In this document: positions 3,499 through 47,840 of the stretch, piece after piece
Position numbering within the stretch: the first letter of the stretch is position 1
Layout: each line of letters begins with the position of its first letter
IMG/VR virus record: IMGVR_UViG_3300033153_005726
Span: 1 to 64,000 of that record
Length of the DNA stretch: 64,000 nt
DNA from: a virus
Lineage: Duplodnaviria > Heunggongvirae > Uroviricota > Caudoviricetes
Reading direction: 5' to 3' (one strand)
Position numbers and translations under genes: made by a program
Notes under the pieces: generated by a model
Databases searched by the model: none
The model's input: the letters and a program-made list of their open reading frames with translations, nothing else
Told to the model about the DNA's origin: nothing

Positions 3499-3680
3499 TG
3501 GATGATATACTGATTACACGCACCAATTTAAAACCAGAAGAAAGATACATGTGTCATTGCCAAAAAGGTTTAATTACATATACAGATATCCCTGCTAGAG
3601 ACAGAATACAATGCCCCAAATGTCTACTGTGGTATGAAGTGTACGATAATAAGAAGGGTAGAGGGGTACAGGTGCTATAA
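3498..3680 (+). CDS. small zinc-ribbon protein (CHC...CPKC)
   Basis: Cys pairs; ATGA-type coupling to neighbours. Confidence 0.4.
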   Translation: MDDILITRTNLKPEERYMCHCQKGLITYTDIPARDRIQCPKCLLWYEVYDNKKGRGVQVL

Positions 3681-4681
3681 TGGATTCTATTCGCCTACAG
3701 AACTTCCAAGCTCACAAAGATACTTTAATAGAATTATCCCCTACATTAACAACTATCACAGGTAAAAGTCACCATGGTAAATCATCTGTGGTGCGTGCCT
3801 TTAAGTGGATGCGTGATAACAAACCGAAGAAGCCACGGTTCATACGTAAAGGTGTCAAGAAAAGTACTGTTACCATAGGTACTGTACGCCATGAACGTAC
3901 TGAGAAAACCAATAAGTATTTCATTGAGGGTAAGAAAGATCCATTCACAGCACTGCGTGGTGCTGTACCTGAAGAAGTGCAACAGGCTTTAGGTTTTGGT
4001 GAAGATAATATCCAAAATCAGCATGACAGTATATTCTTATTGAATGATAGCCCTGGAAAGGTTGCTCAAAAATTGTCAGGGTTAGTTGATTTAGAATCAA
4101 CTACTACTGCTTTAAAATATATTGCTTCCCGCAAAAGGGGACACAATGCGAATGTTGAATCACTTCGCAAATTAATTGAAGATACTGAAGGGCAACTTGA
4201 AAAACTTGAACATGTTGATACGGCTGACGCTGACCTAGCTGAGATTGAAGCAGAAGGGGTGTACATTAAACGCTTGCATGAAAAGCATACCAAAGTAAGC
4301 ACAGCAATTGAAAACGTGTCACGGGCTGATTTGGAGCTTTCAAAGATACCCTCAATTGCCGCCCTTGAACCTGCCAAAAGTATTGCCAAATTGCACAATG
4401 AAGTACAAGTCTTAATAGAAGAACAGAAAATGGTAGGTCATACAGTATGGGCTATAGAAAAATTTGAGGCTGAATTGCAATTTGATCCAAGTAAATTACT
4501 TAAGAAAGCCAAAAGGGTGTGCGGATTGAATGACAAACTTGGCACGGTATCTTTTGCAGTGATGAACGCTGAATCTATTGGGTTAGAAATAGATGATTTG
4601 ATAGTGGAAGAGATTGATTTAAAAGAAAAGAAAGATAAGTTACTTGAAGGGACATGTCCCTTATGTGGGAGATCTGAATGA
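3680..4681 (+). CDS. SbcC/Rad50-like ATPase, N-terminal half: Walker A, coiled coil, ends at the zinc-hook CPLCG
   Basis: LQNFQAHKDT...ITGKSHHGKSS Walker A typical of Rad50/SbcC/RecF-like ABC ATPases; long coiled-coil region; C-terminus ...EGTCPLCGRSE matches the CxxC zinc hook; no signature or Walker B motif in this ORF. Confidence 0.65.
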   Translation: MDSIRLQNFQAHKDTLIELSPTLTTITGKSHHGKSSVVRAFKWMRDNKPKKPRFIRKGVKKSTVTIGTVRHERTEKTNKYFIEGKKDPFTALRGAVPEEVQQALGFGEDNIQNQHDSIFLLNDSPGKVAQKLSGLVDLESTTTALKYIASRKRGHNANVESLRKLIEDTEGQLEKLEHVDTADADLAEIEAEGVYIKRLHEKHTKVSTAIENVSRADLELSKIPSIAALEPAKSIAKLHNEVQVLIEEQKMVGHTVWAIEKFEAELQFDPSKLLKKAKRVCGLNDKLGTVSFAVMNAESIGLEIDDLIVEEIDLKEKKDKLLEGTCPLCGRSE

Positions 4682-5244
4682 AACAATGTACTCGTTGTAA
4701 TACAAATAGAGAGTTAGAAAAATATAGGAAATCATCTTCCTGTAAAGATGGTAGACATACTATTTGCAATAAGTGTAAGAAAAAATACAGTAGAACTAAA
4801 ACAGGTAAAATAAAATCTATTTATGATGATCAACGTAATCATTCTAAAGCGAGAAAGCACCCAATGCCTAATTACACAAAACGAGAATTAATCAATTGGT
4901 GTCTTAAGCAACCTTTATATCATACATTACATACAAAGTGGAAAGCATCAAAATTTTTAAAATCTGCATGTCCATCATGTGATAGAATTGATGATGGTAA
5001 ACCGTACACATTAAATAATTTACAATTAATGACTTGGCAAGAAAATAACAAAAAGAGCCATGCCAACAAATGTAAAGAAGTATTTCAATACGATAAAAAC
5101 ACAAACGGTGTAATCAATAAACATAGTTCTATAGCTATGGCTGGAAAAACAATAGGAATAGCATATCAAGGTATACTTGCATGTTGCAAAGGTACTCAGA
5201 TAACAGCAGGTGGATATAAATGGGGATATGTGTATGAGACGTAA
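4678..5244 (+). CDS. HNH homing endonuclease
   Basis: N-terminal CxxC zinc finger; HNH core CDRIDDGKPYTLNNLQLMTWQENNKKSHAN; C-terminal GYKWGYV-type DNA-binding tail. Confidence 0.6.
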   Translation: MKQCTRCNTNRELEKYRKSSSCKDGRHTICNKCKKKYSRTKTGKIKSIYDDQRNHSKARKHPMPNYTKRELINWCLKQPLYHTLHTKWKASKFLKSACPSCDRIDDGKPYTLNNLQLMTWQENNKKSHANKCKEVFQYDKNTNGVINKHSSIAMAGKTIGIAYQGILACCKGTQITAGGYKWGYVYET

Positions 5245-6154
5245 ATTACAAATGAAAAAGAAAAATATATCAGTGAAATATTTAGCATGTGGAGATTTAC
5301 ATATTACAAATAAACAACCACGTTATAGATGCGATAATTATTGGGAAACAATACAACATAAATTAAAATTTATTATTGATACAGCTAATGAGCGTGATGC
5401 ACAGATACTTATAGCTGGTGACATATTTGATTCATCCAGAATGGGATATGAAGTTACAAACATCATAATTTCTATGTTCCATGAAGCACATAAAATTCCT
5501 TTATGTATAGCAGGTCAGCATGATCTAAAGTACCATACAGACCTTGATAAATGCCCATTGTACACACTGGCATTAGCAGGGGCAGTAAAAATCATTGATG
5601 GTGTGTTTGAAAATATAGCAGGGGCAGGATTTGGTGACCCTATACCTGAAGACAAAGCACAGATTCTTATCACCCATACCACTATCACTGAAAGCACACC
5701 ACCATTCTTTCTTGAAGATGCCATACCTGCTAAGAAGTTTATGCGTATGAATCCACAATTTGAAATTATTGTCAGTGGTGACTACCATGTTCCTTTTGTC
5801 AAGCGGTTGGGTAAGCAAGTCTTGATTAACACTGGTACCTTGATTCGTAACAAGAAAGATATGCATGGGTACGTACCATATATTTGGGAAATTATTATTG
5901 ATGATGGTGTAGTGATTGAGCAGGTGGAAGTACCTCATGAACCATACAGTAAAGTATTTGATCTTGAGGGTATTGAGTACGATAAAGACCATGGCATCAC
6001 CATTGATACTGAACGGCTCAAAGAACTTATTGACTCAGGAATTGATAATAATGACCTAGATTCAATAGTCTGGACGTTATTTAGAGAACTCACTGAACAG
6101 GGGCATCCAATAAATAAAGAACTTACCAAGGAGGTACTTACTCAATGCAAATAG
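5210..6154 (+). CDS. SbcD/Mre11-type metallophosphoesterase nuclease (true start probably at a downstream Met ~5234-5252)
   Basis: Calcineurin-like phosphoesterase motifs ACGDLH, ILIAGDIFD, GQHD. Confidence 0.65.
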   Translation: MDINGDMCMRRKLQMKKKNISVKYLACGDLHITNKQPRYRCDNYWETIQHKLKFIIDTANERDAQILIAGDIFDSSRMGYEVTNIIISMFHEAHKIPLCIAGQHDLKYHTDLDKCPLYTLALAGAVKIIDGVFENIAGAGFGDPIPEDKAQILITHTTITESTPPFFLEDAIPAKKFMRMNPQFEIIVSGDYHVPFVKRLGKQVLINTGTLIRNKKDMHGYVPYIWEIIIDDGVVIEQVEVPHEPYSKVFDLEGIEYDKDHGITIDTERLKELIDSGIDNNDLDSIVWTLFRELTEQGHPINKELTKEVLTQCK

Positions 6155-6390
6155 AGATTGATGAAATACAAGATGTGGTCGATGCCCTTGAAGGTGTGGC
6201 TACCAAACGTATCAAAGCTGAAGCTCGGCTTGAACAGGAAATGGAAATACTTGAAGGTCTTGGGTTCAAGTCAGTTGAAGAAGCTAAAAAGGCCATGGCT
6301 AAACTTAAAAAGAAAATCACAAAACGTGAAGCTGACCTCAAAGAAGAATTCAGTGACTTCATGAATGACTACTCGGAGATGTTTGAATGA
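6145..6390 (+). CDS. hypothetical coiled-coil protein
   Basis: Heptad-rich K/E sequence; ATGA coupling. Confidence 0.4.
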   Translation: MQIEIDEIQDVVDALEGVATKRIKAEARLEQEMEILEGLGFKSVEEAKKAMAKLKKKITKREADLKEEFSDFMNDYSEMFE

Positions 6391-6788
6391 GCATAACATA
6401 TAACATAGCCTGTACCGATTGTAAAAAAATGATATGGGTAGGGCAAGGACGCACATTGTATGGTTACACATATATAGTGGATTTCTTACATGAACACATG
6501 GGACACAATTTGATATTTGTGCGTGACAATGATGCGTTTGAGCTTGAAGAGGAAGGCTATCTAGAATTAGAATTTGAAGGTGTGTTACCCAATGAAAAAT
6601 TATCCCCTTCAGAAGCAGTGTACGGTATATTAGCTTTTTTATCTACAAGAAGTAAACCAATAACTGTTTCAGCAAAGCATGATGCTTCTATATTGGCTGA
6701 CATAGCAAATGATTTCTGCAAAGCTAATAACCTTGCTGATCCACGTGAAGATTACCATAAAATACTGATACACCCAAAGGAAAAGTAA
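6387..6788 (+). CDS. hypothetical protein
   Basis: ORF track. Confidence 0.4.
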   Translation: MSITYNIACTDCKKMIWVGQGRTLYGYTYIVDFLHEHMGHNLIFVRDNDAFELEEEGYLELEFEGVLPNEKLSPSEAVYGILAFLSTRSKPITVSAKHDASILADIANDFCKANNLADPREDYHKILIHPKEK

Positions 6789-7135
6789 TGCATATTAAAG
6801 AATTTGAAAAAGAAAGTGCCCGTACAATGGCTCCTACGATATACCCTGAAGCATTCAATGTTGAAACACTGCATGGTATCATTGGTATTAGTGCGGAAGC
6901 TGGCGAGCTCCTGGATACCGTTAAGAAGGCATACTTTTATGGGCATGAACCTGACCTCAACAATATACGTGAAGAGCTTGGGGATATCATGTGGTACATT
7001 ATGGCTGTTGCTCGTGGACTCAATTTTGATATGGAAGATATCATGAACGAAAACATTGAGAAACTCCGTAAGCGATACCCTGAACAATTTACTAAGGATC
7101 ATTCCAAGTGGAGGTTAGACAAACTCAATGAGTAA
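6788..7135 (+). CDS. mazG: MazG-like nucleoside triphosphate pyrophosphohydrolase
   Basis: GIIGISAEAGELLDTVKK ... EELGDIMWYIMAVA ... NIEKLRKRY: canonical MazG EExxE/D motifs. Confidence 0.7.
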   Translation: MHIKEFEKESARTMAPTIYPEAFNVETLHGIIGISAEAGELLDTVKKAYFYGHEPDLNNIREELGDIMWYIMAVARGLNFDMEDIMNENIEKLRKRYPEQFTKDHSKWRLDKLNE

Positions 7136-7394
7136 CTTTGGTAAAGTGCAGGGTATAGTTTTTGAGGATGCGGCTAACCTGGAAACTTCTAAAGTACCTG
7201 CTGATGAAGTACCTGCAACTGAAGTGCTGCGAAAAACACGGGTACATATCCATAAACAGCCAAGGAGCATCAGGGCACTCAATATTAAATTAGGGAAAGG
7301 TTTAAAGAATCCAAAAGTACTAACTACAATCCTTGAAAATGATCTACTATATCTTGAAATAGAATACGACGATGAACCTGACATCTACATATAA
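7128..7394 (+). CDS. hypothetical protein, paralog of 7600..7842
   Basis: Shared PRSxRxxxxKLGxxxxNxKxLTxxL...LxLExEYDD pattern with the downstream copy. Confidence 0.45.
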   Translation: MSNFGKVQGIVFEDAANLETSKVPADEVPATEVLRKTRVHIHKQPRSIRALNIKLGKGLKNPKVLTTILENDLLYLEIEYDDEPDIYI

Positions 7395-7599
7395 AACTTC
7401 TTCTCATTTTATTTTACAGAAGACCTTGATGACAATAGCCTATTGAAATGTGCTGACTGTGGTAAGTGGGCAATGGCGAGGTACTGGAAACACGTGCAGT
7501 CCTACTGTGAAATATGCGGGGATCATGATGGTATAATGTGTCCCTTATGCGGTAATACGCTTGACTGTGTGTATGATGATGAAACCATAGAGGTAGATA

Positions 7600-7842
7600 A
7601 TGAGCACCAATAAATTTGATGATTCTGAAGAAATACCTATAGAAAAAGTATTCCGTTCACTACCCGTATGGATGCCTGTGCATGAACAACCTAGAAGTAC
7701 TAGGACTGTCCATGTTAAATTAGGTGCAAAATCATCTAATCTTAAAATACTCACCTCCGTTCTTAATGATAATATATTAATCCTTGGACTAGAATACGAT
7801 GACGGAACAATAGAGGTAGATAATGAACAAAAACACCTGTGA
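7600..7842 (+). CDS. hypothetical protein, paralog of 7128..7394
   Basis: As above; a duplicated translation initiation region (atagaggtagataATGa) is present at both ~7585 and ~7810. Confidence 0.45.
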   Translation: MSTNKFDDSEEIPIEKVFRSLPVWMPVHEQPRSTRTVHVKLGAKSSNLKILTSVLNDNILILGLEYDDGTIEVDNEQKHL

Positions 7843-7877
7843 TTCAATGATCAAAGAAAATCAGCAGGAGGACACAA

Positions 7878-8492
7878 ATGGGAATACAAACAGCACGCAA
7901 AAAAGTAGATGATCTCTTGGCTGAACAGCGAATCGCTAAAAAAGCATTAAGTAACTTTAACACCCAATTAGAACAAGAAATAATTGCGGTGGGAGAAATT
8001 GAAGCTGTACAAAAATTGTTTCAATCTGCTGTGGCAATGATGTATGCAAACCTTAGTTCCAAACTTGGGGATATCATTACTGAAGGTATATCAATAGTAT
8101 TCCCTGATGCCCAATTGAAGTTTGTTATTAATTTTGTTGAGAGACGTAACAATGTCGAAGCTGATATCTTACTTGAAGACTCTGATGGTGACCAGTTCAC
8201 TGCCCTTGATGATTCTGGCGGGGGGCTTGCTGATTTTATTGCTCTTTTGCTTAGGATTACGTATATCATTCTGTCTGAACACGATAATATTCTCATCGCG
8301 GACGAACCATTAAAGTTCATTGACCGTGAAAGAATACTTGAAGCAGCACAATTTACTAGAAAAGTATGTGATGATTTCAATTTTCAATTGATAATGGTTA
8401 GCCATATCCCAGAAATGGTGCAGAGTAGCAAAGTTGTTTATGAAGTAAAAAAGAAAAATGGCATTTCTATCACCACTAAAATTAAAGGTTGA
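7878..8492 (+). CDS. SbcC/Rad50-like ATPase, C-terminal half: signature motif, Walker B, D-loop, H-loop
   Basis: DDSGGGLADF (LSGG-type signature), ILIADEP (Walker B), MVSHIPEM (H-loop); short N-terminal coiled coil; no Walker A. Confidence 0.65.
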   Translation: MGIQTARKKVDDLLAEQRIAKKALSNFNTQLEQEIIAVGEIEAVQKLFQSAVAMMYANLSSKLGDIITEGISIVFPDAQLKFVINFVERRNNVEADILLEDSDGDQFTALDDSGGGLADFIALLLRITYIILSEHDNILIADEPLKFIDRERILEAAQFTRKVCDDFNFQLIMVSHIPEMVQSSKVVYEVKKKNGISITTKIKG

Positions 8493-14287: not shown

Positions 14288-15607
14288 ATGGGTTACTATG
14301 AAGAAGAAGAACAAAGCAGACGAGAAGCTGCTATGGAGAAAGCAAAAATGATTAAACGGTTGGTGTTTAAAGCAGGTATACCACTATTCTTTTTATTCGT
14401 GACGTTATGTACATTGCCATTTGCCATTGGTATTAATGATGCTGGTCAACGAACAGTCGTGCAATGGCCTAATGGTACACTGTTTGTGAAGTTTACTCCC
14501 GGTCTGTATTTTGAATGGTTTGGTTCCAGTATTGAATATAATGATGTCATTACCTATGACTTTGATCAGGATTCAAACCCATCAGGTGCTACCCTTGACT
14601 ACAATGGTATACCTGTACGTTACCGTGATGGTGGTATGGGTACCATCTTTGGTAAATCACGTTTCAACTTACCATCAGATGAACCTACTATGCTAATGCT
14701 ACATAAAGAAACACGTAGCAGTCAGGGTGTTGCCAGTAAAATCTTGAAGTCTGTAACTGATGAAGCAATCAATCAAACTGCTGGCCTCATGACCAGTGAG
14801 GAAGGATATGATTCAAAGCGTTCAATCTTCACTCAGATGGCACGTAGTCAACTAAGTAACGGACTTTATCATACACGGGTTGAAACTAAAGTGGTAACCG
14901 ATGAAGTCACTGGTAAAACTGTACGTAAAGAATTCCCTGTCCAAAAGTTTGGTGAAGATGGTAAAGAATTACATTATCAATCAGACTTGAAAAAGTATGG
15001 TATTACTGTATCAGGTTTCCAGTTGAATAATCCTGGGTTTGAAGCAACCACCATGAAACAAATCAGTGAGAAACGTGCTGCTACCATGGCTATTATCACA
15101 GCCAAGGCTACCGCTGAAAAAGCCAAGCAGGATGCCATTACTGCTGAAGAACAGGGTAAAGCTGACGTAATGAAAGCTCAGTATGCTGCCAAAATCTTGA
15201 AAGAAACTGCTACTGTTGAAGCTGAAAAACTAAAGGAAGTGGCTACTATTAAAGCATCACAGAAAGTTGAAGTGGCCAAGCAATCAAAGCTGGAAGCTGC
15301 TGAAATGAAGTTACGTGCTAAGGAAATTAAGCAAGAACAGATCTTTCTTGGTGAAGGTGAAGCTGAACGTAAGCGTCTTGTGATGGCCGCAGATGGTGCC
15401 CTTGCTCAAAAACTGGATGCACTTGTGCGTATCAATGCTAAATATGCTGATGCACTTGGTAAGCATCGCCTTGTACCTGACATTCAGTTTGCTGGTGGTG
15501 AAGGTACTGAAAGCAATGGTGCTACAGACCTGATCAATATGCTTATGGTCAAGACTGCCAAAGACCTGTCACTTGATGCTACCATAAAAACTGCCCCAGT
15601 ACAGTAA
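14288..15607 (+). CDS. SPFH/band-7 (prohibitin/HflK/C-like) membrane protein
   Basis: N-terminal TM; GQRTVVQWPNGTLFVKFTPGLYFEWFG matches the SPFH core; long C-terminal Ala/Lys/Glu coiled coil as in HflK/C. Confidence 0.65.
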   Translation: MGYYEEEEQSRREAAMEKAKMIKRLVFKAGIPLFFLFVTLCTLPFAIGINDAGQRTVVQWPNGTLFVKFTPGLYFEWFGSSIEYNDVITYDFDQDSNPSGATLDYNGIPVRYRDGGMGTIFGKSRFNLPSDEPTMLMLHKETRSSQGVASKILKSVTDEAINQTAGLMTSEEGYDSKRSIFTQMARSQLSNGLYHTRVETKVVTDEVTGKTVRKEFPVQKFGEDGKELHYQSDLKKYGITVSGFQLNNPGFEATTMKQISEKRAATMAIITAKATAEKAKQDAITAEEQGKADVMKAQYAAKILKETATVEAEKLKEVATIKASQKVEVAKQSKLEAAEMKLRAKEIKQEQIFLGEGEAERKRLVMAADGALAQKLDALVRINAKYADALGKHRLVPDIQFAGGEGTESNGATDLINMLMVKTAKDLSLDATIKTAPVQ

Positions 15608-15649: not shown

Positions 15650-16045
15650 ATGATTATTATAACGAAAGTAGAAACAATCACTGTTGACCGTGATCCTTAC
15701 GAGGTTTTACACCAAGCCATGCCAAATGGTTTTTGCACACCAGATTTAACTGCACCCCCTATGGAATGTGAGGTATTCAGTGAACTCATACACGGTATGC
15801 GTTGGCGTTGGCATGATAGGGACAATGATATTGACATCATTGTAGGTGTCAGTGGCGAAGCGGAAAAGATACTTAACCTTGGGTATGGTATAGTTGAAAA
15901 CCTGAAGAAAGAAACTAACCGCCTTGATGATCTGGTCATGATGCAGGGTATAAACATAAAAGACCAAACCAAAACCATAAAAAATTTACGTGATGCTTCC
16001 TTTTGGCAGCGGTTCAAATGGGTATTCACAGGGGTGACAGAATGA
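15635..16045 (+). CDS. hypothetical protein
   Basis: ORF track; ATGA overlap with thyX start. Confidence 0.35.
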   Translation: MGLFIMIIITKVETITVDRDPYEVLHQAMPNGFCTPDLTAPPMECEVFSELIHGMRWRWHDRDNDIDIIVGVSGEAEKILNLGYGIVENLKKETNRLDDLVMMQGINIKDQTKTIKNLRDASFWQRFKWVFTGVTE

Positions 16046-17775
16046 AAATAGTACAACCGACGGCTAAAGTATGGGGAGAATGTCCTACCAATATTGATGA
16101 AGCTATTGTGTGGATTGAACGTGCTGGGCGTGTATGCTACCGCTCAGAAGATAAAATCATTGAGGGTTCAGGTAGAAAGTTTGTTGATGGGATTGTCAGG
16201 CGTAAACATTTTTCAGTAATTGAACACTCAAATTTCGTTGTCCGCACCAAACCCCTTACTTCTCCACGTAAAGAAATGGAAAAGTTGCGTAACAAATACG
16301 CTACTCCATTCTTGCGTTTTTTATTAAAAGGTGATAGAGTATATATCGGTGGTAATTTTAGAGCGTGGATGGAAATGCTTAAATTAAATACTATTGATGA
16401 GTTATTTGATTATTCCTCTAATGATGGACTTAAACTAATCACTAATCACACTGATATCCCTAAACGCCTTAAAATGGTCACTGCTGAGTTTTTAACTGAT
16501 AGGGCAGTTACCCATGAACTTGTAAGACATCGACCTTCAAGTTATTGTTTAACAGGTGATACACTGATACATCACTTTGCTAATGAAAAAAATACAAATT
16601 CAACTGGCAAGAAAAGAACTATTAAACAATTATATGAATATAGCCAAGATCAACGTAAAGGGAGACTCAAGCTCATATCATTAACTGGTATGGATAATGA
16701 TGGTGAATTAATACCAGTACCAATAAAATCTATAATTAAATCTGGTGTTAAAAAAGTGTATAAATTAGTGACAGCTAATGGTAGAAAAATAAAAGCAAGC
16801 AGAAAACATAGGTTTTGTACTAAAAATGGTTGGAAACGTCTACATGAACTTACTGTCGGAGATTCTATTTTATGTAATGGTATTGAGGTGTCCAGGGAAT
16901 ATATTAAACAAAGGTATCTTATAGATAACTTACAGAGGAAAGACCTTGCAAAAGAAATAGGTATGTCTGATGTATGGTTAGGTAAAAAAATAGCCTTATG
17001 GGGGTTACAAAAACCAAAATCACAATATCCAGGACGTAAGGCAGGACATGGTAATCCTGGAATGCATAGCGAAGAAGAAAAAAAAGCCATTTCAAAACGT
17101 ATGAGTGGTGAAAATAATCACAGATGGAATGGGGGTGTGTGGAAAAATGGAAACACTCAATGTGTGAATAAGTATGATATCTCAAATGAATATTGTGTGT
17201 GCGGTATAAAAGCAGAAGAGCGACATCATATAGATAAAAATCCGAATAACAATGAACCTGATAACATAGAGTTTGTTTGCATCAAGTGCCATAAAGCAAG
17301 ACACTTTGATAAAGTTAAAATAGTATTTGAGGATGAGATAATTTCTATAAAATATGCTGGAAAAGAAGAAACCTATGATATCGAAATTGATCATCCATGT
17401 CATAACTTTATTGCAAATGGTTTAGTGGTTCATAATTCACAGGAATCACAACGATATTGTGCTTATCGCAAACATCTTGAAGTTATTATGCCTTGGCATT
17501 ATGATGGTAATAATCAATCTGCATGTTTTCAAATGTGGAAACAAGGAATTGAGTACTCAGAAAAAGCATATAAATATTTACTACAAAATGGAGAAAAAGC
17601 AGAACAAGCACGTAGTGTACTTCCCAATTCAACAGCAACGAGAATTGTTACAACTGCTACAGTTAAAGAATGGGAACATATCTTTATGTTACGTACTTCA
17701 GCAGCCGCATATCCTGGTATCAGAAACATAATCAATCCAGTAAAGTTGGACTTCCAAGAAAATAATTGGATATAA
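16042..17775 (+). CDS. thyX: flavin-dependent thymidylate synthase ThyX interrupted by an in-frame intein (precursor 578 aa; exteins about 281 aa)
   Basis: ThyX signature RHRxxSxxxxSxR is split: ...ELVRHRPSSY | C... ...VHN | SQESQRY...; C-extein ...ARSVLPNSTATRIVTTATVKEWEHIFMLRTSAAA is ThyX-like; GGGTG RBS before ATG 16042. Confidence 0.75.
   Translation: MKIVQPTAKVWGECPTNIDEAIVWIERAGRVCYRSEDKIIEGSGRKFVDGIVRRKHFSVIEHSNFVVRTKPLTSPRKEMEKLRNKYATPFLRFLLKGDRVYIGGNFRAWMEMLKLNTIDELFDYSSNDGLKLITNHTDIPKRLKMVTAEFLTDRAVTHELVRHRPSSYCLTGDTLIHHFANEKNTNSTGKKRTIKQLYEYSQDQRKGRLKLISLTGMDNDGELIPVPIKSIIKSGVKKVYKLVTANGRKIKASRKHRFCTKNGWKRLHELTVGDSILCNGIEVSREYIKQRYLIDNLQRKDLAKEIGMSDVWLGKKIALWGLQKPKSQYPGRKAGHGNPGMHSEEEKKAISKRMSGENNHRWNGGVWKNGNTQCVNKYDISNEYCVCGIKAEERHHIDKNPNNNEPDNIEFVCIKCHKARHFDKVKIVFEDEIISIKYAGKEETYDIEIDHPCHNFIANGLVVHNSQESQRYCAYRKHLEVIMPWHYDGNNQSACFQMWKQGIEYSEKAYKYLLQNGEKAEQARSVLPNSTATRIVTTATVKEWEHIFMLRTSAAAYPGIRNIINPVKLDFQENNWI
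16546..17436 (+). mobile_element. intein (297 aa) with embedded HNH endonuclease and HTH, inserted in the ThyX catalytic motif
   Basis: Starts CLTGDTLI (intein block A), ends GLVVHN (block G) followed by +1 Ser; internal CVCGIKAEERHHIDKNPNNNEPDNIEFVCIKCHKARH is an HNH/zinc motif; LIDNLQRKDLAKEIGMSDVW is HTH-like; removing it restores a contiguous RHRPSSYSQESQR motif. Confidence 0.7.
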
Positions 17776-22297: not shown

Positions 22298-22455
22298 CAT
22301 ATAAACCAATAAAAACAGCACCAAAAGACGGCACTTACATCTTAGTCTTCGGTGATAGCAGGACGGGAAACTGTTACGAAACCGATACTAAAATAAACGG
22401 ATTTGATAGTTGTAAACATATGGCTATTGATGCCTGGAACAGAAGAGTGAAATGA
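22294..22455 (+). CDS. DUF551-like small protein with Lar-like C-terminal AWNRR motif
   Basis: MTYKPIKTAPKDGTYILVF (DUF551-type N-terminus); ...HMAIDAWNRRVK. Confidence 0.4.
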   Translation: MTYKPIKTAPKDGTYILVFGDSRTGNCYETDTKINGFDSCKHMAIDAWNRRVK

Positions 22456-22655
22456 ATATGCAACGAATATTAGTAGGTATTGGATTGACATTATTTTGCT
22501 TTGCAACAATTGGAGTGCAGGTAGTAACACGCATAATAGATATATCAAACAGGGGGTGGGAAACGTACAGAATAGTGGGGGAAGCTGTCTTCGGTGGAGC
22601 TATTATTGTCGCTTGTTTATGTTTTATAATATCAGTGATGCTCGAACTTTATTAA
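22452..22655 (+). CDS. small two-TM membrane protein (holin-like topology, function unproven)
   Basis: Two hydrophobic helices ILVGIGLTLFCFATIGVQVV and VFGGAIIVACLCFIISVML; last + strand gene before the convergent junction. Confidence 0.35.
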   Translation: MNMQRILVGIGLTLFCFATIGVQVVTRIIDISNRGWETYRIVGEAVFGGAIIVACLCFIISVMLELY

Positions 22656-22708
22656 ATATGAGTTGAACAGGGTTCGAACCTGTAATCTCCTGAAGGTGTT
22701 ATCATCAT

Positions 22709-22739
22709 CTACTGAGTTTATTTTGTTTAAACTCAGTAG
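22709..22739. repeat. perfect 12-bp inverted repeat CTACTGAGTTTA(7-nt loop)TAAACTCAGTAG at the convergent junction; candidate bidirectional terminator
   Basis: Lies between the last + strand gene and the stop of the - strand endolysin; no clean T-tract. Confidence 0.35.
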
Positions 22740-22807
22740 GATTTACGCTGGCTCTATTAAGTTACCTGCCACCCAAGTGTTTTCCCAATTAAACTACCAA
22801 CCCAATT

Positions 22808-23329: not shown

Positions 23330-23437
23330 ATTTATTTCTCATCCATTGCGCAGTTTGCATAGCAATTATCCAATCTTCCCATTCTACTATTATAAAAGGT
23401 AATTCTTTAAGGAAATATCCTATTGGAGATTTATTAA

Positions 23438-27395: not shown

Positions 27396-30300
27396 TTATG
27401 GTACCCATACTATATTATGATTAGATCCTACTTGTTGTAATGTCCCGTTTTTACTGAGCAGTGGTTGATGTATCGGCCCGTGACCTGGAATGAATGGTAC
27501 TTGAGGTGTGTTTGGGTTGTTGGTTATGGTGAAGCCATGGATATCACCTCCACAATCCCTGTTTAACCCTGAATAATTACCTACGATGATGTTCCCAGAA
27601 CCCAAATCACCACTAGAAAAAGTAGGATTGGCATCATCTTGAAAAACTCCGTCAAGGGTAAGTGTCACATAATCTAAATCCGCATCATAGACAATTTCAA
27701 AATAATGCCACAAGCCATCCCAATAATCAGTACAATCAAGATTACAGATCTCAGATCCGTCGGGAAGGTAGAATGAAACAAGTATGCTGCTTGGAATTCT
27801 ACCCCGAAAAAACTCTTCACCACTGCTATGACCAAATACAGATGCATACGTGGAACTACTTGTATCAAGATGTCTATACCAGAAAGATATCTTTCCTCTG
27901 GTATTTATCGCATCACTATTTAATGGAAATAAAGCGTAATCAGTACCATCACCATCACCATCTGAATGAAAAGCACTATTTGCAATGCCATCAGGCCCTG
28001 TAACATGTGTAGCACCTGTAACTGTAATATCACCAGTTCCAATCTTCAAAGCATCGGAATCAGCTTCATCACCATGGATATAAGCAGTAATATCACTATG
28101 CGCCTTACTATAATCAGTTAAATTCCCTGGAATAAATGATCCGTAAGGGAGGATTGGTGTATCATAAATACAGAAGTTGTCTATGATGCCTCCTGCTCCG
28201 CTATCCACAGCGTCTGAAGCAATGTACAGATTGTCACCATTTGGAACTGGTGAATTTCCAGCCAATTCGACATTATCATCTGTAAGCAATCCGTCCAACC
28301 AAAGAATAGCCTTACCATCTTTATCCCATGTTAAAGTGATATTGTGCCACTCTCCGTCAAAAATATTAGTATGTACCCCTGACCCTCCAGGGCCATCAAA
28401 TGAATAAGAGTTTTCAGCATATCGGAATGTGAAACCTTCTGCATTCGGGCAATATAATGCGAAATCTGCTGAAGTAAGGCCAAACTGAAACATTCTCGAA
28501 TATCCAGCAAATGTTTCAGTTTGTTTGAAGTCAAAAGATATTGCTCCCGTGTCTAAACTAACATTGTTTCCATCAGTTGCAGTTATGTAAACTCCGTCAC
28601 CAGAATTAGGAATTTCTATTCCATTGCCTCGTTTGCCTAATACAAAAGATGAATCCCCTAATTCTACCGTATCGCCATCAGTAGCATCAAACACATCCAA
28701 AGTGTCAGAATCGCAATTCCACTGAACCAACAAATGCTCATCCTCACTGCCCACAGTACCCGTCCGAACACTCGCCTCATGTAATTCTATAGCAGGATTA
28801 ATCTCGTCTTGCTGGAAGTCAAGTTTGGTTGAATGAGAAACACGAAACATCTGGTAAGGATCAGCATGGAGAGATGCTATTTCTTCTGCTGAGAGGGCTC
28901 GGTTGTAGATGTAAATTGTTTCAACATTAGAATCTAAATAATCACTGCTTCTGGTCCTTCCAATTTGGAAATTATTTAACGTACCTAAAATTGTACCTGA
29001 ATGAGTTATATCATCAAAATAACCATTCATTCCTAAATTAATATTAGACGCTGTAACAATAGCAGATACAATTGAGCGATTTGCAGGAGTAGTTAAATTA
29101 GAGTCAGCTCTGGAATAATCAAGCGAACCATGAATAGTAAAACCAATATACCCTGTATTGTTATACTGCTCCATTTTCAAAGTATAACCATCTAAAGTAC
29201 CGTCGTTATACGCACAAATAGAACTACTAAGCCCAGGTGAAGCACCATTATTTACAATCGCAATAATAGTAAATGGAAAATCTTGTGGCAAACCACTTGT
29301 AGTGACAGACATATAATCAGAATTTGCCTGAATAAAATCTAATCCACCATCAACCCAATCAGGACCAGATATATTAGTAAAATCTGCTGTTCCTGCATAA
29401 TCAGCAACAGTGTCTCCACTCCCCTCATTCATCAGCCAAGCACCCACCAAACCATCAGCAAGGGAATGACCTGATATTAAAGAGGCCGATAATTTAGGTT
29501 TATCCTGGGGTTGGGGAAGATCAATATGATACGCGCCATCGGTTGCCATGCCGTGCCTGAACATTTGGTAAGGATCGTCATGAATCTGAGCTATTTCCTG
29601 GGCAGATAACGCCCTGTTATAAATATGAACGTAATGAATCTCGCCATTCCAGACATTACTCGTATCTGACTGGCCACCAAGGTACATATCGCCTGTGGAA
29701 TCATCAATATCACCTGTTTGCGTAGGTGGGGTACCCCCTGCTTTTACGCCATCTTTATAAACGATGAGTTCAGCTCCATCATAAGTCCCAGCAAGAGTAT
29801 ATTCAGTATCAGTTGATAGGATACCACCTTCGGAATCTTCCTCTATAACAGTAGCGGTTCCATTGTAAACACCGAACCGAAATCCATCAGATGTAGCAGA
29901 AGGCATACGAAGGAAAACACTATCATTTGCTGCTATTTTGAGCCATGTACCAATTGATGCACCCGTTTTTACCTTAGCTACGATGGTGATCCCATCAGTG
30001 TAGAGATCGTCAAGGTCCCCTATACTTACCTTACGGTCACTGTCGCTGTTGATATCAAGGCCGTCTGTAATCCAGCCATCAGATGCGGCCATGTTTCCAT
30101 CATTACTCCCCGTAGCGTCATGAACATCCGTTCCGGTATTTTCATTCATGATCCACGAACCAACAAGACCATTTGCAAGAGGATGATCAGTAATTAACGC
30201 TCTATCATATCCAGGTTTCCCGAAATCAGTATTCGGTATGTTGAGATCAGTTACAGCAGATCCGGTTGTGATGTCTGGGAGCGTTGTGTTGGAAGGGATA

Positions 30301-31049
30301 TCGTGGTATTGATTGCCTAGGAGGAGTCGTTCTGTCGATGTGTATTGCTTACCGCCATCTCTTTCTGCTGAGTCGATGACAACGCATATATTTTGCTTAT
30401 GTACCCCTGAAGCAATTGTGCCGTCATTCCAACCTGCAACGGATGCGCCCGCCCCCCATACAGCCTGTGTCCCCGTTGGTGCTTCAACGTCCTGATGCAT
30501 AACAGAAAACAATATGTCTATTTCTGTGGCAGTTGAACCTATATAGTTCTCGTCTGGCAAGTTTGTCCAATTTGTTCCTGATGTTTCAGTTATTGTTCCG
30601 TAGATATTCGCAACGCTTGTCCCATTATTAGACACCAAAACACCATTGCTATCGGTATCATTATCAATAACAATATCAGATGAAGTTTCCCATTTACATA
30701 CAACTGTAAAATGATCCTGATATACAGTAAACAGTAATTCAACCCCCGTCGACCCAGACAAATAACTGTTTCCTGTATATGTACTGTCGTAATTGCCAGA
30801 AAGAACAAAAACAACTCGTGTTGTATTATTCTCAATAATAGTTATTGTTTTATTTTCATCATATCCTAAAAAATAAATCGTACTTGCATGAACCCTGTTA
30901 TCTGAGATATAAATGAGATTAGTCGTATTTGCTTCATCTCGAATAGAAGCTATCCGATTATCCAGTTGGGATTTATGTACTCGCAACACATACCCATCAC
31001 AAAAAACGTCAATATAGTTACTCTGCTCATCAACTGTAAGATACATCAT
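27396..31049 (-). CDS. large tail fibre / receptor-binding protein with several ConA/LamG-like lectin domains
   Basis: Repeated LamG_3-type endings ...IYNRALSAQEIAQIHDDPYQMFR and ...IYNRALSAEEIASLHADPYQMFR. Confidence 0.55.
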   Translation of the reverse strand: MMYLTVDEQSNYIDVFCDGYVLRVHKSQLDNRIASIRDEANTTNLIYISDNRVHASTIYFLGYDENKTITIIENNTTRVVFVLSGNYDSTYTGNSYLSGSTGVELLFTVYQDHFTVVCKWETSSDIVIDNDTDSNGVLVSNNGTSVANIYGTITETSGTNWTNLPDENYIGSTATEIDILFSVMHQDVEAPTGTQAVWGAGASVAGWNDGTIASGVHKQNICVVIDSAERDGGKQYTSTERLLLGNQYHDIPSNTTLPDITTGSAVTDLNIPNTDFGKPGYDRALITDHPLANGLVGSWIMNENTGTDVHDATGSNDGNMAASDGWITDGLDINSDSDRKVSIGDLDDLYTDGITIVAKVKTGASIGTWLKIAANDSVFLRMPSATSDGFRFGVYNGTATVIEEDSEGGILSTDTEYTLAGTYDGAELIVYKDGVKAGGTPPTQTGDIDDSTGDMYLGGQSDTSNVWNGEIHYVHIYNRALSAQEIAQIHDDPYQMFRHGMATDGAYHIDLPQPQDKPKLSASLISGHSLADGLVGAWLMNEGSGDTVADYAGTADFTNISGPDWVDGGLDFIQANSDYMSVTTSGLPQDFPFTIIAIVNNGASPGLSSSICAYNDGTLDGYTLKMEQYNNTGYIGFTIHGSLDYSRADSNLTTPANRSIVSAIVTASNINLGMNGYFDDITHSGTILGTLNNFQIGRTRSSDYLDSNVETIYIYNRALSAEEIASLHADPYQMFRVSHSTKLDFQQDEINPAIELHEASVRTGTVGSEDEHLLVQWNCDSDTLDVFDATDGDTVELGDSSFVLGKRGNGIEIPNSGDGVYITATDGNNVSLDTGAISFDFKQTETFAGYSRMFQFGLTSADFALYCPNAEGFTFRYAENSYSFDGPGGSGVHTNIFDGEWHNITLTWDKDGKAILWLDGLLTDDNVELAGNSPVPNGDNLYIASDAVDSGAGGIIDNFCIYDTPILPYGSFIPGNLTDYSKAHSDITAYIHGDEADSDALKIGTGDITVTGATHVTGPDGIANSAFHSDGDGDGTDYALFPLNSDAINTRGKISFWYRHLDTSSSTYASVFGHSSGEEFFRGRIPSSILVSFYLPDGSEICNLDCTDYWDGLWHYFEIVYDADLDYVTLTLDGVFQDDANPTFSSGDLGSGNIIVGNYSGLNRDCGGDIHGFTITNNPNTPQVPFIPGHGPIHQPLLSKNGTLQQVGSNHNIVWVP

Positions 31050-41971: not shown

Positions 41972-44900
41972 TTAATTAAGAATGAATTCAAAAAATACGT
42001 CATCAGGGTTAGCTTGGATATCTAAATCCAATACCATTTTAAATTGAATCTCTATACCAATTGTGTCCATAGCTGCTGTTATCCCAGGAACTGCTAAACC
42101 ATTAGTACATTCAATCCATGAAGTATCCCCTGTTTTCATAACATACACTTTAATATGGGAATCACCTAGTATTGAAGTGTAACTCCAATTAACTTGAGAA
42201 AAAACTATAATACCATCATAAGGTTCTAAATCATATACTTCAGATGACCAGGAATCACTATTATTATATCTAATCTTTGTGAATTCAGGGAGTACAAAAT
42301 CAGTACTAGTTTTAATTCCAACTGCAACATCAAAAACCCCAACAGTAGAATCAAATAATGTATCAAATTCTGTAACAGTAAGTGCATCTACTTGCGTTTT
42401 AGTATTGTAATTGATTACATATTCAAAAGCTGCCGATAAAGCAAAGTTTGCTGAATTAAGACTTTTCTGCCAAACATCAACACCATCACGGTAATGCCAA
42501 TCAGAATCACCTGTGTCCCCATGTATAGCATCATCAGTTGATGCCACTGCTCTCCACGCAGCAGATTCATATACATAATAAGTATCATGATCAATTGTAA
42601 ATGCTAACCCGATAGTTTCATTTTTATCGTCTAGGGTTATATCAATAGCGGTAATACTTTCATCTAAAAATAAAGGGAAAGTAGTATGTACAGAATTGAA
42701 AAGATTCACTGTAAAAATGTCTGTATAAGTAGGTAAAACAGTATTTTTATAAATAAATGCGATATCATCAGCACTTAAATCAGTATCAAATATATAAAAA
42801 TCAGATAAAGAACCAATAAAATTACTAGCTTGGGAATTAGCACCTAATTCTATTGGAGCCGAACCAGCAGTTGGGCCATAAACATTCATAGCTGCTGTAA
42901 TAGATAATACACCATTTATGTAAATAGACCAAGTAAGATCAGTCCAATTACGGGTATGGACTATATGCATCCATTCATCAAGAAGTACAACATTAGTGGT
43001 AGTTTGAATTGACTGAGAAGAACTAGAATTACCACACCAAATATGAACCTTCTTATCTGTAGTTATATTTATAGTAATTTCATAAGTATGAGTAGTGCCA
43101 AATATAGCATGAATTTCAGATAAAGAAGTGCACTTCATCCAAAAACAAATTGACATCTCGTCTTCTGCAAGTGTACTTCTAAGTTCTTCTGGTAAAGAAA
43201 TAACCTGATCACCAGAACCAGTAAAAGTCATAGCAGAAGTGAGACGTAATGTATGATTAGCAGAAAAAATAAGATTGTCAGTCGTAAATCTTTCTAATCC
43301 ATTACGATCAGAACCAAATTGGTATGTAATTAAATTTGTGCCAGTAAGTACGCCAGATTTTCTAAGTTCAGTTGTAATGTACTGTAAATCAGTGTCAGTA
43401 CTCCCAGAAGTTTCTGAGATAGATATACGCACAGGAAAATCTGTTTGTTCCGTAGGTATATCTGTATAGTCAATAGTTGCTACTACCCCAACATAATCAT
43501 CCCATCCTTTTAATGTGGTAGACCCTGCCCAACTAGAATAAGTAATTAATGTATCCGTATTTGATTTATTAGTAAGTAATTCCCAATCAGCAGTTCTTTC
43601 AATATCAGAAATACGAACTTCATCTAATGTACCATCAAGAAATGCACCAACAACAGAATCGTCTGATTGAGCACCTATTGTAAATGGTTCTCCTGAAGAC
43701 CCAAAACCAGCAAACGTGCCAGTTTCGGTGACAGATAAAGCTATACCAGAAGCATATAGTGTAAGTCCAGCAGCGGTATCAGTTCCATTATAAACACCAG
43801 CAATAGTAGTCAATACGTCTGTTGTTATATTACCACCAGAAATGTAATCTGTAGCAGTACCAAATTGAATTTCATCTGAATTTGCAGGTATACCCATAAA
43901 AGCCCCTAAATTGGCTCCTGCTTGTCCTTTGGTTGTTATTGTACCCAAACTACTTGTTTGTGCTGCACGTTTAATCACGGCCTCATAAGTGAGTCCTGTA
44001 GCAGTAATTTCAAATGATGCATCAGTTACGCTTGCAACGTCACTTGAACCATTGAAATCAACAGCGTTTCCAATCATACCAGCTACAGTAGTTCCGCCAG
44101 TTAATGAAAGATGTAATTCATTTGCAGTAGAATCTATAATAATACCTGACTCATCTACCATATGATAAACAGCAATAAAATTAGAATCCCAAACATTTTG
44201 AGCTACGGTACTGCCAATTAAACCTACATAAGAAGTATTATCAGCATGGGTATTAGAAAAATAAAACCGCAATACAGTATCTTCAGTATTAGATAAAGTT
44301 GGTATTTTAACCCATAATTCTATTTGAGCATTTTCTATATCATATTTTTCAACTTCAACATAACATTGTTGTCCTGTTTCACCTATTTCGCAAGCTATTT
44401 TTAACCCTACTGGAAAAACAATACCCCCTGTGCCGCCATCAGCAATTTGAATGTTTGCTACATTCCCTTCAAAATACTCACCTGCCCCTGCTGTAGTTGT
44501 TACAGGTGATCCTGCACAAACACCACCAACAGTTTGTTGACCAGTACCATTACCAGAAGTAACTGTGCCAGTCTCACTTACTAATTCGACAAAAGTATTA
44601 TCAAATAAAGTAATGCCGGTATTAGAACATTTTAAATTATACCATGTATCATTCTGTACATTAGAAGAAGGTACTGTAATAGAAGTAATAATAGAATTTG
44701 CATTTCCAAATAAACCAATAGCACCAGAACCATCTAATGCAACTGCAACACCATTTGTGTCATCACCTGATTTATAAATTATTTGAGGGGTTTCTTTACT
44801 TACATCTGTTGGTTTGAATTTACAAAGAATATCAATATCTGATTCATCGCCTACCCCTGCTGGTGAAGTATCTGCACAAGTGTCTAATTCATGAATAGCT

Positions 44901-46921: not shown

Positions 46922-47840
46922 TTCGGAAACTAGCTCCTATTTTAATAGCCATTCTATTGTAATAACTTACACTATTATTTTTAAAAGTATTAAATTGAAA
47001 TACTGTATTACTCCCAATAGTGTCAAAAAACGGATCAAACCGGAACGGTGTATACGTTATCGTATTTAATAATCCTGGTAATATCCCTATAGGATCAGCA
47101 GTAGTACTCATAGCCACCACAATATTTGTATATAAATACCTACCATTCACTGGGGATAATGCATAATTCTGACCGAAGGAAGATGAATTAACGGTTAAAG
47201 TGAGAGCAAGGGGATAAAAAGGAACAGATCCCCTATCATTAGTCCTTGGGTCTCGCATTAAATGTGTTGCATAACTATAATTTGGTTGAAAACGGTTTTT
47301 AAATGGATGCGTGTCTGTTATACTGCAATAAGCATAAGAAGTTTTTGTCATATCAATTGGGAGGTAATCACCAAAATAAACAATAGTAAAAATACCGTCA
47401 TGGACATTGCCTGATTCATACCCATTACACATAAGCCAAAATCCTTTCTCATCCCCAATAATATACCAAGATACATCGTGTTCGACATTGGTATATGATT
47501 TGACTATAGATTTATAGTCAGTACTTATAGAAGTTGCTGGACACGATTCCATGCCTGTATTAACATCTGACATAGTTTCATAACTAAGCACTGTTGCATA
47601 TTTTACGGTACCTCCGTATCCATTATCATCTATACGTAAGAAAAAACGGGTACCCTGTGAAGCCCTAAATACAGCTACATTATTTGGAATATCTTCAAAT
47701 TCTAAAGTATACCCCAAAGAAGCAGTTGAGCCATAACCATTAACCAATACAGCTTTTAATACAGATATTAAAGAACCTGTTGTATTGCTACCCATAGAAG
47801 GTGCATCTGTATCGGTTGATTGAAATAATCTACTAACCAT
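46911..47840 (-). CDS. structural protein
   Basis: ORF track; overlaps neighbours. Confidence 0.4.
   Translation of the reverse strand: MVSRLFQSTDTDAPSMGSNTTGSLISVLKAVLVNGYGSTASLGYTLEFEDIPNNVAVFRASQGTRFFLRIDDNGYGGTVKYATVLSYETMSDVNTGMESCPATSISTDYKSIVKSYTNVEHDVSWYIIGDEKGFWLMCNGYESGNVHDGIFTIVYFGDYLPIDMTKTSYAYCSITDTHPFKNRFQPNYSYATHLMRDPRTNDRGSVPFYPLALTLTVNSSSFGQNYALSPVNGRYLYTNIVVAMSTTADPIGILPGLLNTITYTPFRFDPFFDTIGSNTVFQFNTFKNNSVSYYNRMAIKIGASFRNVN

Follow-up and report, generated by a model that had tools for sequence, protein, structure and literature searches.

The region spanning positions 3680 to 8492 of the DNA we analyzed (the window; positions 1 to 64,000, thus 64,000 nucleotides, of the tailed-virus record IMGVR_UViG_3300033153_005726) very probably, at roughly 85% by our estimate, represents one copy of an ancient and widespread four-gene module of the Mre11-Rad50 type in which Rad50/SbcC is encoded as separate polypeptides. 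The proposed parts of this module are an N-half and a C-half of the ATPase, an SbcD/Mre11 nuclease and a helix-loop-helix protein of ~80 amino acids. The same split, accompanied by the nuclease and the small helical protein, is found again in thousands of other phage sequences and beside recA in many Bacillota, and it looks like a working design rather than a broken gene. While Mre11-Rad50 itself is already known, the split module is apparently undescribed, and our search of the literature and of NCBIfam found no account of such a division of Rad50/SbcC. The domain content of the two halves, the integrity of their motifs, the conservation of the split, its synteny and its distribution were all observed directly.

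The original prediction held that the SbcC/Rad50 ATPase is divided at its hook motif, and both reading frames and the position of the motif proved to be correct. The N-half (3680..4681, plus strand, 333 amino acids) is comprised of the N-lobe of an ABC ATPase, a helical arm and a hook motif at the C-terminus. Its Walker A motif reads G28-KSHH-G33-K34-S35 (nucleotides 3761-3784); G28, K34 and Q114 are invariant among the homologues in alignment A1, with G33 nearly so, and Q114 is at the position expected for the Q-loop glutamine. Pfam assigns AAA_15 and AAA_23 to this protein and PHROGs assigns phrog_16465 ('exonuclease'), while the top matches of its profile in the PDB are archaeal Rad50 N-lobes (5f3w/3aux, E 3.6e-16). 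The arm predicted by AlphaFold2 (residues 139-322, ~185 helical residues; model pLDDT 82.9) is built of tandem helical repeats of ~45 residues, and comparisons between arm segments in hhalign gave 94-97% probability, against only 2-38% for control coiled-coil comparisons. The chain ends with C326-P-L-C329-G330 followed by R-S-E and the stop, which places the zinc-hook-type motif CPLCG (4655..4669, plus strand) three codons ahead of the stop. The motif is nearly identical to the hooks of E. coli (CPLCG) and P. furiosus (CPVCG), and across 30 diverse N-half homologues invariance is complete at C326, C329 and G330 and nearly complete at P327 and L328. The end of the N-half profile also aligns weakly (E 3e-4) to the 140-residue Rad50 chain 6zff_A, which we take to be a hook structure.

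The C-half (7878..8492, plus strand, 204 amino acids) begins with a single long helix and continues into the C-lobe, and its ORF is preceded by a separate ribosome-binding site, AGGAGG at 7866-7871. It carries the predicted signature (S113-GGG, 8214-8225), Walker B (D142-E143, 8301-8306) and H-loop (H176, 8403-8405), along with a D-loop that reads DEPLKFID, and this ORF, again as predicted, contains no P-loop (Walker A). The GGG, DE and H residues are invariant in alignments A2 and A6. PHROGs assigns phrog_15167 ('ATPase'), and among PDB chains its profile fits Rad50 C-lobes best (3aux_A residues 175-368, E 1.5e-10); the N-half and C-half profiles match complementary parts of the same Rad50 chains. 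Structure prediction for each half leads to the same assignment, with the AlphaFold2 models matching the separate N and C chains in crystal structures of two-chain Rad50 heads. The best Foldseek matches of the N-half are 9a9j_A and 1f2u_A; for the C-half (pLDDT 90.6, pTM 0.71) the first rank is taken by the C chain of an SMC head, 5h66_B, and two-chain Rad50 heads are represented in the top ten by their C chains (1f2u_B/D, 1ii8_B and 9a9j_B). The two arms are as asymmetric as had been noted: against the ~185 helical residues of the N-half stands a single C-half helix (residues 3-74), ~50 residues of which are estimated from the model to protrude from the lobe.

Comparison of the gene order in related phages revealed no intact sbcC, and the halves were always separate. 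All 93 homologues of the N-half measure 286-527 amino acids and all 56 homologues of the C-half 145-218, and none of either set is fused to the other half. A profile of the N-half retrieved 10,896 protein clusters with E<=1e-30. All of the 150 top-scoring ones measure 295-409 amino acids and match from end to end, and no fused relative was present among the 93, the 56 or these 150 homologues. Each of the ~110 related loci (30 viral and ~80 from Bacillota) encodes the two lobes in ORFs of their own, which run in the same direction as the SbcD-like and small-protein genes, and every complete N-half (28 viral and ~79 bacterial loci) has C-P-x-C close to its end, 3-44 residues short of the C-terminus. 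Wherever the flanking sequence is long enough, one half is accompanied by the other in essentially every locus, whether viral or on Bacillota chromosomes. An SbcD-like gene accompanies them in every such locus except L030, and N-half, SbcD and C-half are found together in 77 of the 82 bacterial loci. The order N-half, SbcD, small protein, C-half on a single strand is found across the 30 viral loci; in Bacillus phages and Bacillota the order is sbcD-N-small-C, colinear with the canonical sbcD-sbcC, and most bacterial loci in Bacillota are arranged as recA-sbcD-N-small-C-rny. In three loci (L014, L017 and L028) SbcD is fused to the N-half, as in gp8 of phage 0305phi8-36. Recurrence in every related locus examined puts this pattern far beyond chance.

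These neighborhoods also bear on whether the genes could instead form an ABC-ATPase-plus-nuclease system of defence or anti-defence, similar to Septu PtuAB, Gabija, PARIS or OLD. The N-half does match the heads of PtuA, OLD and GajA weakly, and AAA_15 is a Pfam label common to such systems. We nevertheless consider a conflict module improbable: Rad50 is the top profile match of both halves, the partner is an Mre11/SbcD-type phosphoesterase and not a TOPRIM or HNH protein, the bacterial operon occupies a housekeeping neighborhood between recA and rny, and the neighbors of the phage copies are genes for ligase, RecA, polymerase and nucleotide metabolism.

The two halves are separated by 3196 bp, in agreement with the ~3.2 kb reported originally, and this gap includes sbcD and MazG as described, although it holds eight ORFs and not seven. 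The first of these (4678..5244, plus strand, 188 amino acids) begins on the stop of the N-half, the two overlapping as ATGA (4678-4681), and had been called an HNH endonuclease. Its NUMOD-type domains (PF22083 I-HmuI_NUMOD-like, E 1.6e-6; PF07453 NUMOD1) and its match to 'endonuclease VII' in PHROGs (phrog_1035, E 7.8e-15) agree with a homing-endonuclease-like gene, and its N-terminus is zinc-ribbon-like; the HNH domain itself stayed below significance, with no Pfam HNH match at E<=0.1. Read by eye, the motif CDRID...NNLQLMT..EN looks degenerate, with Arg at what is presumably the position of the first HNH His. The GC content of the gene is 0.30-0.32 versus ~0.38-0.40 nearby, and its occurrence is sporadic, being present in the window and in locus L003 and missing from L004-L007. 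It entered an already existing intergenic junction at a later time and stands outside the core module.

The contact between this gene and the N-half had raised the possibility of fragmentation by a mobile element, that is, that an HNH homing-endonuclease gene with its cargo recently cut an intact phage sbcC and left decaying or tolerated fragments. The ATGA overlap and the low GC content would fit such an event, as would an HNH_3+AP2 gene directly 3' of the N-half in vB_BboS-125 and an HNH-type gene adjoining it in 0305phi8-36. However, the endonuclease-free loci L004-L007, most of L008-L030 and ~80 bacterial operons are split after the same C-P-x-C, fused relatives are missing from the homologue sets counted above, and the catalytic motifs are all invariant down to ~20% identity. 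At that junction L004-L007, most viral loci and all of the bacterial operons have no inserted gene. Because L004 and the minimal cassettes L005-L007 are split without the HNH-like gene, this gene is not causal, and we regard a recent disruption as extremely improbable. Genes in pieces are reportedly found in phage Aeh1, where nrdA is said to be split by the homing endonuclease gene mobE, and in T4, where the topoisomerase genes 39/60 are said to be another case; the window resembles them in making an enzyme from separate pieces and in having a homing-endonuclease-like gene at the junction, but differs in that its split is family-wide and long older than its endonuclease gene. An origin of this kind by homing-endonuclease insertion was rejected, since relatives without the endonuclease would be expected to carry an unsplit gene, whereas theirs is divided at the identical position.

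Because the window is part of a contig assembled from a metagenome (JGI source), the split could also be the product of an assembly or sequencing error, a frameshift or a chimeric join. The same ORF boundaries are found in independent metagenome assemblies, in the finished phage genomes 0305phi8-36, vB_BboS-125 and phBC6A51, and in isolate genomes, among them those of Halalkalibacterium halodurans DSM 497 and Peptoniphilus duerdenii ATCC BAA-1640, and the C-half has a ribosome-binding site of its own. Since independent assemblies, including finished phage and isolate genomes, have the same architecture, an artefact is excluded for practical purposes and is to us the least credible of the explanations.

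The SbcD/Mre11-like metallophosphoesterase is encoded by a 314-amino-acid ORF (5210..6154, plus strand; Pfam Metallophos E 4.7e-8; phrog_100, SbcD-like), translation of which probably starts only at the ATG at 5234. Phosphoesterase motifs I-V (DxH, GD, GNH[DE], H, GxH) are matched, and D29xH31, G70D71, G102-Q-H104-D105 and G190DxH193 are invariant in alignment A4; Q replaces N in motif III, which reads GQHD and not GNHD in the clade of the window, and a further His was read by eye in an ITHTT stretch. The fourth component of the module is the helix-loop-helix protein (6145..6390, plus strand, 81 amino acids here). An HMM built from 8 sequences identified a homologue of 73-118 amino acids in 23 of 31 viral and ~77 of 82 bacterial loci, always between the N-half and the C-half and usually directly upstream of the latter. 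This protein has no family in Pfam, PHROG or NCBIfam.

With regard to function, these genes most likely encode a working complex of the Mre11-Rad50 type, with an ATPase head put together in trans in the manner of laboratory two-chain Rad50 heads. The original prediction had offered such assembly as one of two readings, and it is strongly supported by the conservation of the split, the retention of the catalytic motifs, the co-occurrence of the halves and their mapping onto two-chain structures; the existence of two-chain Rad50 head structures means that the lobes are able to assemble in trans. The N- and C-lobes would join non-covalently into one ABC ATPase head, and two heads would sandwich ATP. 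The first arm helix of the N-half and the helix of the C-half may form the coiled-coil base, which is the docking site for Mre11/SbcD in canonical complexes, with an SbcD dimer as the putative source of nuclease activity. Two N-halves could be linked through their C-terminal C-P-x-C motifs around a shared zinc ion. The role in the phage may be the processing of DNA ends for recombination-dependent replication or repair, as with T4 gp46/gp47.

A return strand matching the N-half arm in length is not encoded, the C-half helix being only ~50-70 residues, and an arm with no partner of matching length therefore cannot form the canonical antiparallel intramolecular coiled coil. The 81-amino-acid ORF had been proposed as a third fragment, in which case the small protein would be the detached middle of the return strand and the canonical antiparallel arm would be rebuilt from three pieces. 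The colinearity of sbcD-N-small-C in Bacillota and Bacillus phages with canonical sbcD-sbcC speaks for this, and the small protein is all-helical, nearly always immediately 5' of the C-half and, to that extent in line with the proposal, a conserved member of the module. We nonetheless consider a three-piece Rad50 unlikely: the small protein forms a helix-loop-helix instead of a single long helix, it has no detectable homology to Rad50, hhalign finds it similar neither to the repeats of the arm nor to the helix of the C-half, and together with that helix it provides ~130-150 residues versus arms of ~130-370, with no compensating change. The arm (~185 amino acids here and 130-370 in relatives) differs by >200 amino acids among relatives, while the small protein stays near 80 and the C-half helix is likewise constant.

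The most far-reaching reading, to which we give somewhat less than even odds as a whole, is a distinct class of Mre11-Rad50 with a single-pass arm of ~45-amino-acid repeats, a C-terminal zinc hook and an obligately heteromeric head. The partner of the arm would be another N-half, the arm itself or the ~80-amino-acid subunit. Such a class, though uncharacterised, would be of old origin, passed down in Bacillota within the recA-rny interval and abundant in uncultured phages. If true, it would constitute a separate structural class of this machine.

Canonical SbcCD (E. coli), T4 gp46/gp47 and archaeal Mre11-Rad50 share with the split module the same ABC head motifs and an Mre11/SbcD-type partner in the same operon, and the canonical order of sbcD before sbcC is also that of the Bacillota module. 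In contrast, canonical Rad50 has its lobes on one chain, where the split module has two polypeptides and a conserved ~80-amino-acid protein; the canonical hook is mid-chain at the apex of the coiled coil, where the N-half has C-P-x-C at its very C-terminal end; and neither the short return strand nor the variable repeat array of the arm is like canonical Rad50. The window proteins align chain-for-chain with laboratory two-chain heads (1F2T/1F2U, 1II8, 3QKR and 9A9J for Rad50; 5H66 for SMC), but those are engineered truncations without arm or hook, whereas the phage split is natural and its N chain keeps both. In a study of Mre11-Rad50 fusions, one P-loop NTPase segment 'was not observed' in a Bacillus phage and Anaerostipes (Yoshida, Claverie & Ogata 2011, PMC3175470). 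The 0305phi8-36 gp8 fusion consists of SbcD and an N-half of the window's own family, and the segment missing from it is the separately encoded C-half, gp5. The window differs from this type in that its SbcD is unfused and lies between the halves.

The remaining five ORFs of the gap, all on the plus strand, are lineage-specific cargo that sits between the small protein and the C-half: a 133-amino-acid ORF (6387..6788), MazG (6788..7135; PF03819, E 8e-13), an 88-amino-acid ORF (7128..7394), a zinc-ribbon-like ORF of 56 amino acids (7443..7613) and an 80-amino-acid ORF (7600..7842). This stretch (6387..7842) is missing in the minimal cassettes L005-L007, and MazG, the small ORFs and the HNH/NUMOD gene would be later arrivals in the junctions between module genes. 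The 88- and 80-amino-acid cargo ORFs are paralogues.

The two ORFs under study are complementary halves of one Rad50-type head, because their profile and structural matches fall on the N-terminal and C-terminal parts, respectively, of known heads. The N-half (3680..4681, +; 333 aa) matches Pfam AAA_15 and AAA_23 as well as phrog_16465 'exonuclease'. It starts with a beta-strand and a P-loop (G28-KSHH-G33-K34-S35), ends in LLEGT-C326-P-L-C329-G-RSE-stop and has a stop codon that overlaps the next ATG, as ATGA. The C-half (7878..8492, +; 204 aa; phrog_15167 'ATPase') has its own AGGAGG ribosome-binding site and carries the signature S113-GGG, Walker B D142-E143, the D-loop DEPLKFID and the H-loop H176; the P-loop is absent from it. 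The ORF map thus agrees with the original prediction, which described an ORF with Walker A terminating just past CPLCG and a second ORF with the signature, Walker B and H-loop and no Walker A. A profile built from 30 diverse N-half homologues gave archaeal Rad50 N-lobes as its top PDB matches (5f3w/3aux, E ~1e-16), and the C-half profile aligned with these chains as well, at residues 175-368 (E 1.5e-10). Structure prediction of each half, proposed earlier as a check, pointed the same way. The AlphaFold2 model of the N-half shows the N-lobe followed by helices at 139-175, 177-221, 227-266 and 270-322 (pLDDT 82.9, pTM 0.35), and that of the C-half a single helix, residues 3-74, and then a beta/alpha lobe (pLDDT 90.6, pTM 0.71). 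Foldseek pairs the N-half model with N chains, and the C-half model with C chains, from two-chain Rad50/SMC heads (1f2t/1f2u, 1ii8, 3qkr, 9a9j, 5h66). The reading of the two as unrelated neighbouring ORFs was rejected. Since such two-chain heads exist as laboratory constructs, halves of this kind can assemble in trans.

In Rad50/SMC models, ATPase head and zinc hook are connected by a long antiparallel coiled coil formed within one chain. The module in the window has the motifs and the partner nuclease of the Rad50 family but not the single-chain antiparallel coiled coil, and its hook is in an atypical position. C326, C329 and G330 are invariant in the N-half alignment, P327 and L328 nearly so, and the motif is always C-terminal: C-P-x-C lies 3-20 residues from the stop in every complete N-half of the viral loci and 6-44 residues from the C-terminus in the bacterial loci. 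The last ~80 positions of the N-half profile align to the 140-residue Rad50 chain 6zff (E 3e-4), which we take to be a hook structure. N-halves measure 295-472 aa in viral loci and ~435 to 531 aa in complete bacterial copies. Despite this variation the C-half, at 190-260 aa, hardly changes, and neither does the small protein encoded with the halves (73-118 aa). None of the loci examined encodes a return strand as long as the arm, which rules out the canonical intramolecular antiparallel coiled coil. Homologous helical repeats of ~45 residues make up the arm (residues 139-322), with hhalign probabilities of 96.7% (H2-H3), 95.9% (H3-H4) and 93.6% (H2-H4), against 2-38% for controls using the C-half helix or the small protein. 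When 183 sequences were tested for a fold-back hairpin within the arm, as a mutual-information anti-diagonal, the signals were weak and not the same in two runs.

The small protein (81 aa in the window, 6145..6390) is a helix-loop-helix with the consensus ..LK..LEkAK..kykAEARLEqL...ELeeLGV.PE.Le.EI..Le.EI... over 96 sequences. The suggestion that this stand-alone coiled-coil ORF is a third fragment, part of the return strand, is favoured by its position between the two halves, but its length stays constant while that of the arm varies, and in hhalign the small protein was not significantly similar to either half, the arm repeats or the C-half helix. A homologue search of the protein collection with the 81-aa protein returned only itself, and its homologues were located by local HMM; it is a conserved subunit of the module.

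The split is widespread among viruses. In a collection of 5.8 billion proteins, all 93 N-half homologues were 286-527 aa long and all 56 C-half homologues 145-218 aa, and the same long contigs contain both. We compared gene order in relatives for an intact sbcC, as had been proposed, and found the halves as separate ORFs throughout; local HMMs over 30 viral loci gave the order N-half, SbcD, small protein, C-half on one strand, with the halves never fused. Two Bacillus-phage variants exist besides, one with the order N-small-C-SbcD (vB_BboS-125, phBC6A51) and one with SbcD joined to the N-terminus of the N-half (0305phi8-36 and loci L014 and L017). Three viral loci (L005, L006 and L007, with 40%, 33% and 28% identity) hold a minimal cassette of the N-half, the SbcD-like nuclease, the ~80-aa protein and the C-half. 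Of 1.84 billion cluster representatives, 10,896 matched the N-half HMM at E<=1e-30; the 150 with the best scores were all 295-409 aa and matched end to end. Among 50,697 deposited phage records the module occurs in only about four lineages. In the vB_BboS-125 RefSeq record, a stretch without annotated CDS contains a 326-aa SbcD-like ORF (NC_048735.1, ~22423-23403; positions 6424-7404 of locus L001; HMM E 1.9e-21). Microbacterium phage Magritte (OR553905.1) has a C-half-like gene 2 ('exonuclease', 488-925) and an N-half-like gene 155 ('hypothetical', 93838-94317), 93 kb apart in linear-record coordinates, a possible exception to the tight synteny.

The original prediction also offered a gene broken by mobile-element insertion, the HNH gene abutting the break. 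The HNH-like/NUMOD gene (4678..5244) does lie directly at the N-half junction, but it is sporadic and of low GC (0.30-0.32): among the relatives' neighbourhoods it was found in the window and locus L003 only, and both L004, which does not have it, and the minimal cassettes are split too. We therefore reject it as the cause of the split and regard it as a sporadic insertion at a junction that existed before. At this junction vB_BboS-125 has a different gene, HNH-AP2, which suggests that the site tolerates or attracts homing endonucleases. An assembly artefact is likewise rejected because finished phage genomes and isolate genomes have identical boundaries.

The module is also present in cells. 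Two N-half homologues were found in chromosomal contexts. A scan limited to a single genome for each species gave 184 relatives; we examined the best 80, and all came from Bacillota. The carriers include Ezakiella, Peptoniphilus and other Tissierellia, Thermoactinomycetaceae, the alkaliphilic Bacillaceae Halalkalibacterium halodurans and Shouchella, and Caloramator and Mahella. N-half, SbcD and C-half occur together in 77 of 82 bacterial loci, in most of them as recA-sbcD-N(~480 aa)-small(~80 aa)-C(~220 aa)-rny, with operon genes that adjoin or overlap by a few bases. This synteny in a housekeeping neighbourhood across Bacilli and Clostridia argues for an old cellular system with a role in DNA repair or recombination, and the location between recA and rny, seen in many Bacillota, suggests that it has a housekeeping task in repair. 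On one 1.16-Mb contig (L032) the module lies among NADH-dehydrogenase genes. In public annotation, the Ezakiella-like genes for the N-half and C-half (6001-7473 and 7690-8412 of locus L033) run past TGA codons near their 3' ends; these proteins may simply end at the TGAs, because recA and sbcD of the same locus have none.

Judged by its sequences, the module would be functionally a Mre11-Rad50/SbcCD system. From motifs, homology and synteny we infer its most likely assembly and activity as follows. The N-lobe and C-lobe would form a heteromeric ABC head, and the N-half helix at ~139-175 would pair with the C-half helix at ~5-55 as the coiled-coil base. In canonical complexes a helix-loop-helix of the Mre11/SbcD C-terminus docks at this base; the SbcD-like protein of the window appears by eye to end in three short helices. 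ATP-driven head dimerisation would control the SbcD dimer, and two N-halves would be joined via zinc at their C-terminal hooks. In the phage, the complex may process ends for recombination-dependent replication, as with T4 gp46/gp47.

Among published work, Yoshida et al. 2011 (PMC3175470) give the closest hint of the split: they described Mre11 fused to Rad50 in 0305phi8-36 and Anaerostipes and noted that one NTPase segment 'was not observed'. The C-half, encoded by a gene of its own, is this segment. In ~8 million full texts, a coverage that does not extend to the ABC ATPase classification of Krishnan et al. 2020 (NAR), no account of a naturally split Rad50/SbcC was found. Neither half has a model in NCBIfam, where no model reached its cut-off; the best partial matches cover positions 4-71 and 799-894 of a model for archaeal Rad50 with 895 positions. 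The split family is thus missing from the curated libraries checked; in public records its pieces are labelled 'exonuclease SbcC', 'chromosome segregation ATPase' or 'hypothetical', and surveys counting intact SbcC genes have probably overlooked it. As a large natural family without most of the return strand and with the hook at the chain end, it offers a direct test of what in the arm is required to tether DNA ends, form the clamp and gate the nuclease, and its small separable subunits should be convenient for structural studies.

Within this family the window is an ordinary case with added mobile and cargo genes, and the interest lies in the family. The gap between its halves is 3196 bp and holds eight ORFs, one more than originally counted: the HNH-like/NUMOD gene, the SbcD-like metallophosphoesterase, the 81-aa helical protein, a 133-aa ORF, MazG, an 88-aa ORF, a 56-aa zinc-ribbon-like ORF and an 80-aa ORF. 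Megablast of the region against deposited phages gave no match, and a promoter and terminator scan performed no better than on shuffled sequence. Phosphoesterase motif III, usually GNHD, reads GQHD in 6/6 phage SbcD sequences of the clade in our SbcD alignment (window 5513..5524, residues 102-105) and GNHD in Halalkalibacterium SbcD. The 88-aa (7128..7394, +) and 80-aa (7600..7842, +) ORFs are paralogues with 42% identity, and a 49-nt direct repeat (7572-7620 and 7795-7843, 78% identity) spans the 3' ends of the 56-aa (7443..7613, +) and 80-aa ORFs; this arrangement, located between MazG and the C-half, resembles a small cassette that was duplicated.

Elsewhere in the window, an intein (PF14890 Intein_splicing, residues 201-478) interrupts the ThyX (Pfam Thy1) gene (16003..17775, +), a further case in which a mobile element has invaded this phage, and a 473-aa HNH/homing endonuclease (52087..53508, -; phrog_559, E 8e-103) lies among tail genes. 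The early/metabolic gene block includes a 439-aa SPFH/Band 7 domain protein (14288..15607, +). Large minus-strand ORFs are found at 54200..63649 (3149 aa), 47840..52087 (1415 aa), 41972..46921 (1649 aa, with baseplate/virion PHROG matches) and 27396..31049 (1217 aa, with Laminin_G_3 domains).
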